Positions 528 through 64,000 of a stretch of DNA of 64,000 bases are shown piece by piece. A model generated the notes under the pieces. That model saw only the letters and a program-made list of their open reading frames with translations, was not told where the DNA came from and did no database searches. The DNA lies in NCBI RefSeq assembly GCF_016026235.1, contig NZ_CP065613.1, one strand, 5' to 3'. The position numbers were made by a program, and so were the translations under genes. How positions within the stretch are numbered: position 1 is the stretch's first letter; each line of letters begins with the position of its first letter. The stretch is from Escherichia coli (lineage in GTDB: Bacteria; Pseudomonadota; Gammaproteobacteria; Enterobacterales; Enterobacteriaceae).

Positions 528-666
528 AAGGGATATCAGTTAAGTTATCCCGTGTAGGGTATAAGCCATTATCAAGCCCACCCGTAGATGGACTTTGTAA
601 TGGATAGCTGTTGCTCAGTTCTCGTAATGCTTTGATTTTTCCGATAACGCAGTTTTGCGTTTGCCA

Positions 667-1188
667 TCAGCACGCGATATCGAGAGTCAACTGCAGTTGC
701 TCGCGCCAGTACTCGACATTTGCTTCAATAACCGGCTTATCCCATCGCCAGCGAGCCATCTCTCTTGCCCCATTGCTGGCTTTTGATTTCCGGTCATCGC
801 GAATGCGACATGCTTGCTCATATTTCTGCTGCTCAGTCAGTTCACCGCGAAGCAGACTATCAATGTGCAGGTCGCACCATACGGAGAATTTCGGATCGCA
901 CCATCTTGCAAAGGCAACTGATAACTTTGGATGCTGCCATGTTCCGCCGCCCCTGTCCTTTCGTGCCTTGCTTGTTTTTACATACCCGGAATCACGGGTA
1001 TGTAGAATTTTCGATGGTTCACCTGAATAAACCTCATCCAGAGCTCTAACGTATTCGAGAGTTTCAGCGTTGGACAACCAGTGATCCAGACGCTTCCCGA
1101 AACGTTTTGCAATATCAGTGGCATTAATCCAGCCATCAGTATTGAAGCGGATAGGTTCGCCTTTGTAATTCAGTGGAACGATATTCAT
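667..1188 (-). CDS. KilA-N domain antirepressor-like protein
   Basis: 173-aa ORF following Rz on the late strand; N-terminal KilA-N-like segment (NYKGEPIRFNTDGWINATDIAKRFGKRLDHW). Confidence 0.6.
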   Translation of the reverse strand: MNIVPLNYKGEPIRFNTDGWINATDIAKRFGKRLDHWLSNAETLEYVRALDEVYSGEPSKILHTRDSGYVKTSKARKDRGGGTWQHPKLSVAFARWCDPKFSVWCDLHIDSLLRGELTEQQKYEQACRIRDDRKSKASNGAREMARWRWDKPVIEANVEYWREQLQLTLDIAC

Positions 1189-1390
1189 AGCGTCTTACCT
1201 TTTAGAAAGATGAGCCTGTTCGCACAGAAAAGCCGCCCCGAGATGGTCGCCACCATATACGGCAGTTCTCAGGCTCAGCTTTCTGAAAGACTCGGGATTG
1301 TTACGCGCTGCGATGCGCGGTTTACTGCGGACATATAAAAGCCCCGCAAGTGCGAGGCTCATTAAATTGACTTTGTGATTTGCAAAAAAA

Positions 1391-1828
1391 TTATTTCAGG
1401 CATTGCGTCCTGATGTATTCCTGCAGGTAGTTAACCTGCGCGGTTATCCTGTCGATTCCACTTCGGAGACGGTAATAATTGAGTTCAGCATCTGCTGTAA
1501 GTCCTGGGCTTTCTCCATAGCCCATGCTGCTGGCTCCGGTCGTTGACTTTGCACAGGTGGCGGCGACTTGCAGGCGCTTACGACCAGCAGAAACATCAGC
1601 ACGGAGACTTTCGATAGTCGCGTTAGCATCAGCAAGCTCCTTTGTGTATCTGGCGTCGAGTTCTGCTACATCACGTTGACGCTTCTGCATATCAGAGATG
1701 ATGGATGTGGCCTTATCGCGCTGCTCTTTGTAGGTAATGGCGTTATCACGGTAATGATTAACAGCCCATGACAGGCAGACGATGATGCAGATAACCAGAG
1801 CGGAGATAATCGCGGTGACTCTGCTCAT
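1391..1828 (-). CDS. Rz: Rz i-spanin (inner-membrane spanin)
   Basis: Strong resemblance to lambda Rz ([34 protein letters not shown]...); start overlaps endolysin stop; track ORF begins 5 codons upstream. Confidence 0.85.
1444..1635 (-). CDS. Rz1: Rz1 o-spanin lipoprotein embedded in the +1 frame of Rz
   Basis: ORF nested inside Rz; hydrophobic signal ending in lipobox-like VVSAC followed by proline-rich segment, as in lambda Rz1. Confidence 0.6.
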
Positions 1829-2358
1829 TGATCTATCCCCCAACAGGCTAATGCGCTTTCCTGGTCACGACGAATAACCTGTCCATAGCAGTTATTTGAA
1901 CGTATGCGGCAATCGCGCCCAACATCTTTTATCCACCAGCGAATCGCCTCGCATGCGCCCTTACGATCACCGGCATTCAGCCGCTTATAAAACGTCGACG
2001 GGAAACACTTACCGGGGCCAATGTTATAGGGGCAAAATGACGCTATACCCGCTTTTTGTGGTTCGGTCAGTGGTACTTTAATATTGCGCTCCACCCATGC
2101 CAGCGCCTTATCACGTTCAATGGCGTTAACCTGGTCGCATTTTTCCTTCGACAGCTTCATTCCCGGTATGACAGGCTTACCATCCACCATTGTGGCACCA
2201 CGACAGATGGTCCATATGCCAGAACCATCACGGTATGCCGTTGTGTGATTACCCTCTTTTTCGTTCAGAAACTGGTCAAGTATCTGGGGAGCAGACGCGC
2301 CTGCGGCAATCAGCGCCAGAACAGCAGCCGACAGGCCGTATTTGATTTTTGCGCTCAT
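1825..2358 (-). CDS. R: SAR-type endolysin (T4-lysozyme-like muramidase)
   Basis: N-terminal Gly/Ala-rich weakly hydrophobic SAR segment ([18 protein letters not shown]) followed by E-x8-D-x5-T catalytic spacing ([16 protein letters not shown]). Confidence 0.85.
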
Positions 2359-2423
2359 GGATATTTATCAGGATTTATCGGCAACAAATAACGAGCCAAC
2401 TTATATACGCCTTTTAAGATAAG

Positions 2424-2984
2424 TCAGCCCCAGCTGGATCCAGTCATCAGGCTCTTTCTTAAAGGGGGAGTATTGAAATCACGAAGAAGAGCCTCCCGCA
2501 CCGCAGCATCCATGTCTGCACCACTGGCAAGTGCTTCAATCTCTGCCGCCACCTGCAAATACCCCATGCAACGGCCAATGCGTTTCATAACTCTGGTGTT
2601 TTCGTCTTTCAGGCATCTGATAGCGAGATTAATAATTTTCAGGCAGTGATGATGCGATGCCCGGACAGGTTTTCCGTTCTCATAAACGACGAACTCACCC
2701 TCTTCACAGGAAACCCTGAAAGGCCGACGGGGTTCCTGGTCTTTATCCGGTGCAGACGCAATAAAATCACTTTTATGCTCTTCCTCTCCGGCACTGTTAA
2801 CCGTAATGACGTACTCAGGCCGCAGGTAAGCCGCCTCTTTTTCTGACAATGCGGCCGGTAAAAACTTTTCCTGCAAAAACTTCATAAAAGTCTCGTGAGC
2901 GACTTTGTGGCAGTAATCGTAAATCGCCGCATAATGCTCATCGCGGCGTTTGTTTTCATCTTCAGAACTCACCAACGCCGACAA
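2424..2984 (-). CDS. hypothetical protein inserted between holin and endolysin
   Basis: 186-aa ORF (TTG or GTG start) between S and R; no recognisable domain; a 27-aa coupled ORF with good SD lies just upstream. Confidence 0.45.
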   Translation of the reverse strand: MSALVSSEDENKRRDEHYAAIYDYCHKVAHETFMKFLQEKFLPAALSEKEAAYLRPEYVITVNSAGEEEHKSDFIASAPDKDQEPRRPFRVSCEEGEFVVYENGKPVRASHHHCLKIINLAIRCLKDENTRVMKRIGRCMGYLQVAAEIEALASGADMDAAVREALLRDFNTPPLRKSLMTGSSWG

Positions 2985-3055
2985 TTTTTATTAAGCTCAG
3001 TGATTTCATTTTCCAGGTGATTGAATCGCTGATTCATTTCTTCATGCTTCATTAT

Positions 3056-3271
3056 TTACTCTCCCCGTGCAGCCTTACGCTTGTCTTCTCTTATTTTGAA
3101 ATACAGATTCGTCAGATAAGTCAGAAGCCCCAGAAGCAGACTTCCCAGCACACCAATCGCAGCCCACTGTGATGGACTGACCTGATCCAACCACTGCAAA
3201 AACCAGTAGCCGGCACTGCCGGCGGAGGTGCCGTAGGCAATGCCCGTTGAAATTTTGTCCATGGATTTCAT
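3056..3271 (-). CDS. S: pinholin (phage 21 S21-like class II holin, dual-start motif)
   Basis: 71 aa; [24 protein letters not shown]... matches the phage 21 S21 pinholin pattern incl. M1-K-S-M4 dual start; two TM segments. Confidence 0.8.
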
Positions 3272-3563
3272 AGCCTCACCTCCGCAAATAACGGATGGCG
3301 TAGTTTTACACTGAGAAATGAAAGGGATTTGAAAAGAAAAAAACGCAAAAGCGGGCGAAACGATATATACAGTAAGGAAAGCACTCTATCCAACAAACCA
3401 CCCACAGTTAATCGGAATAAAAGCAGAGTGCTTATGAATGATCGCACGCCCGAAGGTTAGTATTTCTGCACAGCAATTTTGCAAAAAAAGGCGATCATTC
3501 ATAACTTAAACGTCTTTCAGTCACTCCGGGATTTCCCATCATCGCAGACTGAAAGACTCTGAC

Positions 3564-3638
<75 letters not shown>

Positions 3639-3641
3639 ATA

Positions 3642-3717
<76 letters not shown>

Positions 3718-3719
3718 GC

Positions 3720-3796
3720 TGGCCCACCACCGAGGACTCGAACCTCGCACCGTCAACTTAGAAGGTTGATGCTCTATCCGGATGAGCTAGTGGTGG
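3720..3796 (-). tRNA. tRNA-Arg (anticodon UCU, reads AGA), phage-type
   Basis: Cloverleaf with anticodon loop CUUCUAA, T-arm CGAGGUUCGAGUCCUCG, encoded CCA; 5' base appears to be C, which is unusual. Confidence 0.7.
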
Positions 3797-3797
3797 T

Positions 3798-3874
3798 TGG
3801 TGGCCCTTGCTGGACTTGAACCAGCGACCTGGCGATTATGAGTCGCTCGCTCTGACCAACTGAGCTAAAGGGCC
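3798..3874 (-). tRNA. tRNA-Ile2-like (anticodon CAU, lysidine-type; could be scored as Met)
   Basis: GGCCCUUUAGCUCAGUUGGUCAGAGCGAGCGACUCAUAAUCGCCAGGUCGCUGGUUCAAGUCCAGCAAGGGCCACCA, close to E. coli ileX-type tRNA. Confidence 0.75.
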
Positions 3875-4073: not shown

Positions 4074-4490
4074 TCAGGGATGTTCAATATATTTGTCCAT
4101 TTCTAACCGGACACCCAACATCATCAACATTCCTTCCACCACCCCCTCGGCTTTTTGTAGCTTCTTTCCTATATAACCATCTGAGCATCCATGCTTCCGC
4201 GCCAGCGTCATGAATGTCATCCCAAACACGTAGTAGTCAACCAGCAAGTCATGTAGATCGTTGTTGTTCCGGTTAAGGCGGGCCATACACCCACATATAA
4301 CCATCGCGTCATCGTCACAGCATTGCGGGCGGGATTTTACTTTTGAAGGGATTAATCCCTTAAAACCGGCAGCAATGGACGACCAGGTCACATCCTCATG
4401 ATTATTAGCCACCCACGCGCCCCAGCGCTCAAGAACCTGCTGAATATCACGCATCACTGTCTTTACCCCTGTCCCATCCACGATGAACAA
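4074..4490 (-). CDS. Q: late antiterminator Q (phage 21/933W-type)
   Basis: 138 aa with Cys-rich zinc-finger-like core ([16 protein letters not shown]) and position immediately upstream of terminator and lysis genes. Confidence 0.75.
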
Positions 4491-47401: not shown

Positions 47402-47487
47402 ATTCACTACCTGTTAGTAAATGACTGCTTGCTGGCGGCTATTTTGTCAGCACTGAATACAGGACTTCGTGAATCGAGTCACAGCAA

Positions 47488-63086: not shown

Positions 63087-64000
63087 TTAACCCGCGAGAC
63101 GCTGATATTCTTTGGCAATTTCGCTCGCCAGAATGGCGTTGTTGAACACCAGCTGGATGTTGGATTTCAGGCTGTCACCGCCGGTCAGCTCAGCAACGCG
63201 CGCCAGCAGGAATGGCGTACTTTCTTTACCAATAACACCCTGCGCTTCAGCTTCAGCTACCGCCTGATCGCCGCATTGATAGTGTGTTCCGGCATAGCAA
63301 ACTGTTCCGGGATCGGGTTCGCTACCACGAGGCCACCGTTCAGCCCGCTTTGCCATTTCACCGCCATTGCACGGGCAATTTCGCTGGCGCTGTCGAGACG
63401 AATGCTGACGTCAAACGGGCTGGTACGGCAGAAAAACGCAGGCAGCGCTTTAGTCTGATAGCCAATTAACGGCACACCGAAGGTTTCTAAATACTCAGTG
63501 GTTAATCCTAAATCGAGAATAGATTTCGCCCCGGCACAAACAACGGTGACATTAGTATTTGCCAGTTCTTGCAAATCGGCAGAAATATCGAAGGTATGTT
63601 CCGCCCCGCGATGAACACCACCAATTCCCCCGGTGGCAAATACTTTAATTCCGGCAAGCGCCGCAATAATCATCGTTGAAGCCACAGTGGTTGCGCCATT
63701 TTTTCCGGCGGCAACAACAAAAGGTAAATCGCGACGACTAACTTTGGTCACGTTATGCCCTTCACGACCCAGTAATTCAATTTCTTCTTTGCTTAAACCC
63801 ACTTTCATCACGCCACCAATAATGGCGATAGTGGCAGGTACTGCGCCCTGTTTACGAATAGTTTCTTCAACTTCAATTGCGGTCTGGGCATTTTGTGGGA
63901 ACGGCATCCCGTGAGAAATAATGGTCGATTCCAGCGCCACAACCGGTTTTTTGTTTTTTAAAGCGTCCTGCACTTCCGGGGAAATTTGTAATAATTCAGG
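63087..64000 (-). pseudogene. psuG: pseudouridine-5'-phosphate glycosidase, frameshifted; 5' end beyond window
   Basis: Homology split between two overlapping frames (track ORFs 63257-63973 and 63087-63356). Confidence 0.6.

Follow-up and report, generated by a model that had tools for sequence, protein, structure and literature searches.

Organization of the Lysis Cassette

The window (the whole stretch of DNA analyzed here, 64,000 nucleotides of an Escherichia coli contig) carries a phage lysis cassette on its minus strand. The gene order, Q, four tRNA genes, S, a gene that we call X, R, and Rz/Rz1, is the arrangement of a lambdoid late operon, Q marking the start of the late operon that bears the lysis genes. 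The features are listed below.

4074..4490, minus strand: Q, late antiterminator (PF06530 Phage_antitermQ, E = 5.8e-54)
3564..3874, minus strand: four tRNA genes between Q and S (ARAGORN; Rfam tRNA matches)
3056..3271, minus strand: S, 71-aa P21-type class II holin (pinholin) (PF04971, E = 1.1e-35; phrog holin families)
2969..3052, minus strand: 5′ fragment of X, a 27-aa ORF (phrog_1085 match; alignment to the intact 209-aa gene)
2985..2989, no strand assigned: frameshift site 1, five T on the plus strand (six bases in all relatives)
2424..2984, minus strand: 3′ fragment of X, a 186-aa ORF (phrog_1085, E = 1.3e-64; homologues)
2464..2468, no strand assigned: frameshift site 2, five G on the plus strand (DNA alignment with the intact 213-aa allele; three-frame translations)
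2401..2466, minus strand: ancestral C-terminal tail of X, off-frame (the translation reads PFKKEPDDWIQLGLTYLKRRI and then stops)
1825..2358, minus strand: R, 177-aa SAR-type lysozyme (PF00959, E = 5.4e-24; alignment to 3HDE and 4ZPU)
1391..1828, minus strand: Rz, inner-membrane spanin subunit, 145 aa (PF03245, E = 1.5e-34)
1444..1629, minus strand: Rz1, outer-membrane lipoprotein spanin subunit (PF06085, E = 2.4e-20; phrog_3198)
1339..1360, minus strand: terminator-like hairpin followed by a T run, just 3′ of Rz (consensus match only)

The earlier note on this DNA, which placed the cassette at 2424–3271, had S, the 27-aa ORF, and the 186-aa ORF where we find them, but the endolysin gene (2358..1825) lies outside that range. 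The tRNA genes have anticodons CAT, TCT, TGT, and TCC according to ARAGORN, and the one with the CAT anticodon has been named tRNA-Ile by PGAP in a related strain, E. coli CFSAN029787.

Terminator-like sites, such as the consensus match downstream of Rz, are not more numerous in the region than expected from shuffled sequences. Similarly, promoter-like sites in the S–R region are at the shuffled expectation, the ORF list for the plus strand of the S–R interval contains only short unsupported ORFs, and the Rfam search of the region matched the tRNAs and no other RNA. These ORF, Rfam, and shuffling results speak against an antisense gene, a regulatory RNA, or an internal terminator in the S–R interval.

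Pinholin, Lysozyme, and Spanins

The S protein matches the family Bacteriophage P21 holin S (PF04971) over residues 5–67 with 121.8 bits at a cut-off of 26 (E = 1.1e-35). Its gene begins with ATG AAA TCC ATG (M1-K2-S3-M4), a putative dual start for the antiholin and holin forms, and is preceded by a strong Shine-Dalgarno sequence, GGAGGTGAGG. The first transmembrane domain (TMD1, residues 8–27) is weakly hydrophobic, 12 of its 20 residues being Gly, Ala, Ser, or Thr and the 15-residue hydropathy means ranging from approximately 0.0 to 0.6; TMD2 (residues 36–57) is strongly hydrophobic, with means up to 2.2, and the C-terminal tail is charged. S21 of phage 21 belongs to the same Pfam family and likewise has a dual start and two TMDs. 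S is a pinholin of the P21 type, predicted by analogy to form pinholes and depolarize the membrane; the description of the holin in the earlier note, including the dual-start motif, is thus borne out by the PF04971 match, the MKSM start, and the character of the two TMDs.

The R protein contains a T4-lysozyme-like domain (PF00959, E = 5.4e-24) and aligns from residue 12, SAR segment included, to the SAR endolysins R21 (3HDE) and RrrD (4ZPU). The catalytic triad E35/D44/T50 has the Glu-8-Asp-5-Thr spacing and is aligned to EG..YKD..GVWT of R21 (3HDE). Residues from approximately 7 to 27 form a putative N-terminal signal-anchor-release segment with seven Ala, two Gly, and two Ser, with Lys4 and Lys6 upstream; from established rules, the Pro that follows the ASA motif should block signal peptidase I. 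These observations agree with the previous assignment of a SAR segment to the endolysin. R is a SAR endolysin, for which export via Sec in a tethered inactive form and activation upon release are predicted.

The start codon of Rz (ATG) overlaps the stop codon of R, and the 145-aa gene has also been called in the identical locus of a near-identical assembly (L095, see below). Rz1 (1629..1444) is embedded in Rz (1828..1391) in another frame and has the lipobox LVVSAC, as expected for a two-component spanin.

In phage 21, TMD1 of the pinholin exits the bilayer, pinholes depolarize the membrane, the SAR lysozyme is released, and the spanin acts. By analogy, the S21-type pinholin of the window would accumulate in the inner membrane; its weakly hydrophobic TMD1 would leave the bilayer, and small pinholes would collapse the membrane potential. 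Depolarization would release and activate the membrane-tethered lysozyme R, and the Rz/Rz1 spanin would then disrupt the outer membrane. The gene identities fit the signal-anchor-release pathway proposed earlier, the mechanism being carried over from phage 21.

A Single Gene Split by a Homopolymer Frameshift

The two ORFs between S and R had been described as a gene for an unknown 186-aa protein and a coupled 27-aa ORF in front of it. Comparison with homologues leads to a different picture. The 27-aa ORF matches positions 117–139 of phrog_1085 (E = 0.0017) and the 186-aa ORF matches positions 141–286 (E = 1.3e-64), that is, the fragments fall contiguously on the profile of one family of unknown function. 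In the 27-aa ORF, codons 1–22 are authentic and are followed by five out-of-frame codons and TGA; the 186-aa ORF follows its homologues co-linearly, starting at residue 23 of the intact protein, as far as approximately position 2469 of the window, and then leaves the family frame for its last 14 codons. The ATG of X lies 4 nt past the S stop codon, with a Shine-Dalgarno sequence, GGGGAGAG, inside the 3′ end of S.

In E. coli CFSAN029787, the position of X is occupied by a single 630-nt CDS (WP_001300760.1, “hypothetical protein”), and an alignment of 721 bases shows one extra A, in the run AATAAAAAATTG, and one substitution relative to the window. Six public near-identical assemblies (L095–L100) have six T where the window has five, and each encodes a single 209-aa protein. 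Of these, L095 (locus on a 4.68-Mb contig) was compared with the window over 7,052 bases, and the only difference is the T missing from the window at 2985–2989; L097, L099, and L100 differ from the window by the same base alone, and L096 and L098 likewise have six T. The unsplit allele with exactly the ...SSWG end of the window (P0161) is present on 10 public contigs, and a search of approximately 15 billion proteins for four possible products of the split allele found none of them on record.

Judging from these sequences, a single 209-aa gene has lost one base from a run of six A and is thereby divided into the 27-aa and 186-aa ORFs, whose apparent coupling is an artefact of the frameshift. 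The six-base run in the near-identical assemblies and the lack of recorded split products indicate that the split has arisen only once, by a private mutation or by an error in assembly. X as a whole has no uninterrupted frame co-linear with homologues from start to stop; relative to the family, it carries two one-base deletions (2985–2989 and 2464–2468), so the inserted gene cannot be regarded as intact.

One could still suppose that an intact 186-aa lysis-modulating gene is coupled to a 27-aa leader in an unusual S–X–R unit, given that the gene lies within the lysis cassette and that the ORFs overlap, the TGA of the 27-aa ORF covering a GTG of the 186-aa frame (GTGA). Such a stop/GTG overlap may allow low-level re-initiation with a 182-aa product. 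However, in every relative the 27-aa ORF corresponds to the true N-terminus of the same protein, the split allele occurs just once, inspection of the upstream sequence revealed no Shine-Dalgarno sequence before the TTG or GTG of the 186-aa frame, and the S–X–R arrangement is common (see below). We therefore give the coupled-leader reading hardly any credence.

The run of A might alternatively be a site of programmed −1 frameshifting or transcriptional slippage, possibly a phase-variable switch, with the full-length protein still being made. Indeed, a −1 shift on AAU AAA AAU UG restores exactly the wild-type ...LNKKLS..., and lysine codons in A runs are shift-prone. On the other hand, the heptamer is U AAA AAU rather than X XXY YYZ, re-pairing would place tRNA-Lys on UAA, and five A's are far below the run lengths that give appreciable slippage of RNA polymerase. 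Moreover, the five-base allele is found in no relative, all six near-identical assemblies having six bases. A programmed −1 frameshift site was rejected on the heptamer rules and on the absence of the shifted allele from relatives, and the reading in general seems extremely improbable.

The two possible origins of the singleton are closer to each other. If the five-base run were a sequencing or assembly error, the strain would have the 209-aa gene, with the shared C-terminal frameshift as its sole lesion. The indel affects a homopolymer, nothing else distinguishes the window from L095 over 7,052 bases or from three other assemblies, and the products of the split allele are missing from approximately 15 billion proteins, all of which makes an error a serious possibility, if the less probable of the two. 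The main argument against it is that no other homopolymer indel was observed in the window over 6.7 kb in comparison with CFSAN029787, over 7 kb with L095, or over 24 kb with FDAARGOS_943, which indicates that the assembly is not error-prone; an error-prone assembly as the source of the window was rejected on this basis. In addition, natural frameshifts arise most commonly by homopolymer slippage, and IS insertions and pseudogenes are visibly building up in the lineage. Given the absence of other homopolymer indels, we lean slightly toward a real mutation.

The decay of the lineage is seen both in the prophage and in the gene family. For its chromosomal backbone, the window has its closest match (99.8%) in FDAARGOS_943, whose genome is rich in IS elements (annotated are IS600, ISSfl3, and ISSso6) and has, at the same prophage, IS600 in place of S and X. 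In the window prophage, an IS3-family element at 17865–19108, with GTA on both flanks, interrupts the excisionase gene xis. The X homologue from O158:H23 has been annotated as “frameshifted” by PGAP, and many copies of the X family are truncated to 104–116 aa or reduced to N-terminal stubs. With the prophage degrading, a genuine X pseudogene is plausible.

An Older Frameshift and the Lost C-Terminal Tail

The second lesion, identified in the DNA alignment with the intact 213-aa allele, replaces CCACCC of intact alleles by CCCCC at 2464–2468 of the window. The C-terminus of the family, ...NTPPFKKxPxxWIxPGLxYLKxRI, is conserved down to homologues with approximately 30% identity. The window still encodes this tail, PFKKEPDDWIQLGLTYLKRRI followed by a stop codon, at 2466..2401, in another frame and unjoined to the ORF.

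Frameshift 2 also occurs in CFSAN029787, in four IMG/VR loci, and in a 181-sequence cluster of E. coli and Shigella flexneri origin. It is the older of the two, common to close relatives, and frameshift 1 is private to the window. Since frameshift 2 is shared, even the “intact” 209-aa form lacks the best-conserved segment of the family. This tail-altered 209-aa form is widespread, as seen from the 181-sequence cluster, one member of which is present on 379 contigs, and thus it may retain some function.

The Family of X and Its Relation to YdfR

The homology search for the 186-aa protein, proposed earlier as a check, yielded phrog_1085 (E = 1.3e-64) and homologues with E-values reaching 7e-129, and hence the ORF is not coding by chance. 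The dN/dS ratio of 0.40 between the repaired X of the window and the intact 213-aa allele likewise indicates that the family encodes a real protein whose sequence is moderately constrained. In a database of 5.8 billion sequences, 132 homologues were found at E ≤ 0.001, and all those with a named source come from E. coli or Shigella. Searches in Pfam, NCBIfam, and PADLOC revealed no family for either fragment of X or for the repaired protein.

The homology of X is to long YdfR (DUF1327) proteins, of which it covers the C-terminal two-thirds. Homologues of 287–333 aa contain PF07041 at the N-terminus, followed by the X module, and are named “YdfR family protein” or “DUF1327 domain-containing protein”; one of them (P0004, 333 aa, with PF07041) has 82% identity over 94% of the X query. 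Proteins of 296 aa match X at E of approximately 1e-30, and distant homologues have a DUF1327-like N-terminal domain (hhalign 84%, E = 7e-6). X itself has no DUF1327 (PF07041) domain, and its alignments to long YdfR proteins start after the DUF1327 block; in the phrog_1085 profile, whose 296 positions include the DUF1327 part, X of the window starts at approximately position 117.

According to the homologue alignments and the hhalign comparison, the usual architecture consists of a DUF1327-like domain, a coiled coil, and a conserved C-terminal domain. Prophages of E. coli have the full form, an N-terminal form only (YdfR of K-12, 103 aa), or a C-terminal form only (185–217 aa, as in the window). 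X is evidently the stand-alone coiled-coil and C-terminal module of the long YdfR proteins.

In the AlphaFold2 model, X begins with a helical hairpin at the N-terminus, continues through an acidic linker that is disordered (residues 66–109), and ends in a confident C-terminal domain of three strands and helices (pLDDT 76–90). No fold relative of the module was found, and the sequence search of PDB yielded weak matches only, GCN4 coiled-coil fusions among them (best E = 0.047). The protein has no hydrophobic segment, the maximum 19-residue Kyte–Doolittle mean being 0.76. The profile search of 1.84 billion cluster representatives gave 41 relatives of X, none of them with an informative extra domain. 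The X module family is thus very small, moderately constrained, and without a recognizable fold.

A Gene Between S and R in Related Cassettes

In order to see how often S and R are separated, we considered 80 IMG/VR loci with the closest holins, 71 of which contain both S and a lysozyme gene. An intervening gene is present in all 45 loci with the 177-aa lysozyme, encoding DUF1327 only (40 loci), the 209-aa form (four loci), or both (one locus), and S and R abut in all 26 loci with an R21-like lysozyme. The slot of X in the window is of the former type, directly after the S21-type holin and before the 177-aa lysozyme; R of the window is only approximately 33% identical to the R21 type, in whose loci R follows S without a gene between them.

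The same layout is known from characterized prophages and phages. In the Qin prophage of K-12, the order essQ (216 nt), ydfR, rrrQ (534 nt, 177 aa), rzpQ/rzoQ coincides with that of the window in both gene order and sizes, the intervening gene also starts 4 nt past S, and the spanin genes are embedded in both. The difference is in the content of the slot: YdfR of Qin is a 103-aa protein with DUF1327 only, whereas X of the window is the complementary module, lacking DUF1327 and frameshifted. As the long proteins join DUF1327 to the X module, ydfR of Qin and X belong to one mosaic family.

The viable phage mEp460 has a holin, a YdfR family protein in the slot of X, a lysozyme, and Rz, and several other isolated phages have a similar arrangement. 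The “YdfR family protein” of the Stx2 phage 86 contains the C-terminal module (59% identity over residues 63–217). The genes of mEp460 and phage 86 are intact and contain DUF1327, in contrast to the broken copy of the window, which does not.

The Stx phage 933W has a holin 79% identical to S of the window and a lysozyme of the same 177-aa type, as well as a zone of tRNA and moron genes between Q and S. However, its gene order is S, R, ant, Rz/Rz1: R follows S directly, and the extra gene, ant, is found between R and Rz.

Hence, the statement of the earlier note that S and R are normally adjacent does not hold for cassettes of this type, as demonstrated by the 45 of 45 sampled loci with the 177-aa lysozyme, Qin, and mEp460; nor is an additional gene between them unusual, the essQ–ydfR–rrrQ layout being standard in Qin, mEp460, and the IMG/VR loci. 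For the Qin/mEp460-type cassette, with an S21-type holin and the 177-aa SAR lysozyme, an occupied S–R junction is the normal state. Both the gene arrangement and the X family are already known and catalogued in databases, and the claim of novelty could not be upheld. The locus is unusual solely in that a frameshift in a homopolymer gives the appearance of a small ORF upstream, which illustrates an annotation trap: one gene is turned into an apparent “coupled” leader ORF and a novel gene.

Possible Role of X

The position of the X start codon 4 nt past the S stop codon and its Shine-Dalgarno sequence inside S suggest that X would be a cytoplasmic protein made late in infection. It would be soluble and accessory to lysis rather than a component of it. 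In the window, frameshift 1 would stop translation at codon 28 and frameshift 2 would replace the conserved tail, leaving X non-functional or nearly so. S, R, and both spanin genes are intact and would be expected to work independently of X; transcription by Q-modified RNA polymerase should continue across the untranslated part of X, and polarity on R is unlikely.

We estimate the probability at roughly three in four that the locus is an ordinary lambdoid lysis cassette in which X is one YdfR-type accessory gene, twice frameshifted, dispensable, and inactive here. X itself is most likely a non-essential, soluble, late-expressed accessory protein, inactive in the window.

The genomic context of the family bears on a possible regulatory role. 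In every locus examined, members of the X family are found in the late region, adjoining the lysis genes or just upstream of them, and distant homologues of the X module occupy the Q–S interval, ahead of the holin gene, in some cases with HicAB modules as neighbors. Intact members might be true lysis regulators, for example cytoplasmic factors binding the charged C-terminal tail of the pinholin or tuning translation of R, in which case the frameshift would change lysis timing. This would agree with the presence of the family only by late-operon lysis cassettes, where it occupies the S–R junction or lies just ahead of S, with the distance of 4 nt between the S stop and the X start, and with the persistent linkage to lysis genes, which is compatible with a role in lysis timing.

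Nevertheless, the position relative to S is not fixed, and a late-region family of this kind fits an accessory gene better than an integral component of lysis. The same types of S and R work without X in 933W; X, as a soluble protein devoid of membrane segments, differs from known antiholins and releasins; family members are often truncated or frameshifted; and the zone between Q and S is a general hot spot for morons (stx, tRNAs, HicAB). Taking all this into account, we consider a regulatory role of intact X proteins unlikely. Still less probable is a more specific version, in which the X module is a dedicated late-phase lysis-linked effector coupling RNase E-mediated RNA decay or the cytoplasmic tail of the pinholin to lysis timing, with homopolymer runs acting as on/off switches in prophage populations.

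No functional study of a gene between S and R was found in the literature except the RNase E interaction screen with K-12 YdfR. According to two-hybrid and pull-down data, K-12 YdfR (DUF1327) binds residues 1–597 of RNase E, i.e., its catalytic half, and co-purifies with RNA, and its overexpression has little effect on the transcriptome (PMC13232886). In a screen cited in the same paper, a ydfR mutant was scored as envelope-defective (PMC13232886). We suggest that polarity on the lysozyme gene, which lies downstream of ydfR, may account for this defect. For X, the lead from YdfR and RNase E is the only functional one, and it is indirect, as the DUF1327 domain is absent from the window X.

The broken copy of the window is unsuited to the study of the X module and overall matters little. 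Given the report on YdfR and RNase E (PMC13232886), an intact X allele is a reasonable, low-priority candidate for a late-phase phage factor.

Accessory genes in and around the lysis cassette

Between the late antiterminator gene Q and the pinholin gene S, the prophage carries a cluster of tRNA genes:

3564-3874, four tRNA genes, anticodons CAT, TCT (Arg), TGT (Thr), and TCC (Gly)

The tRNA with the CAT anticodon is assigned to Met by ARAGORN, and to Ile by PGAP in relatives. Rfam matches to "Plastid-ycf2" on the opposite strand of the same interval (3564-3874) were sub-threshold and simply reflect the tRNA complements.

In two loci of distant homologues of the accessory gene, L084 (2127-2781) and L087 (1780-2434), an opposite-strand HicA/HicB toxin–antitoxin pair lies between Q and the YdfR-like gene, which is another sign of accessory cargo gathering in the zone from Q to the holin. 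In E. coli 2015C-3121 (L093, 749-1645), the stand-alone module is intact (213 aa); after it come a DUF1327 gene of its own (75 aa) and a reverse-strand ORF, and then the lysozyme gene. Thus, the two domains also occur unfused, in the order opposite to that of the long fused proteins.

In the window, the stop codon of the broken accessory gene is separated from R by 65 nt, and no recognisable Shine-Dalgarno sequence was seen upstream of the R start codon (…GATAAATCCTGATAAATATCCATG; region 2358-2423 inspected). Downstream of R, a mosaic break is observed between the window (603-1713) and the corresponding locus of E. coli CFSAN029787 (L083, 942-2920): in the window, the 145-aa Rz is directly followed by a 173-aa KilA-N gene (1188..667), whereas in CFSAN029787 Rz is 155 aa long and is accompanied by a ParD/ParE toxin–antitoxin pair and a KilA-N gene unlike that of the window.

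Insertion elements and the closest genome

The excisionase gene of the prophage, directly upstream of the integrase gene (19253..20539), is interrupted by an insertion element flanked on both sides by the trinucleotide GTA:

17865-19108, IS3-family element
18734..19072, minus strand, ORF of the element
17868..18707, minus strand, ORF of the element

The prophage can probably no longer excise.

By chromosomal backbone, the closest genome is FDAARGOS_943 (99.8%). Its locus L094 (NZ_CP065615.1, 286958-289305), corresponding to about 1825-3874 of the window, has IS600 between tRNA-Gly and the lysozyme gene, with the holin and accessory genes missing; copies of IS66, IS600, and IS110 are found throughout this prophage. 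Compared with FDAARGOS_943, the window lacks 10 bp (ATGAGATTGC) at 47415, in FDAARGOS_943 the galS–yeiB intergenic region, and shows a further 2-bp difference at 63258-63259.
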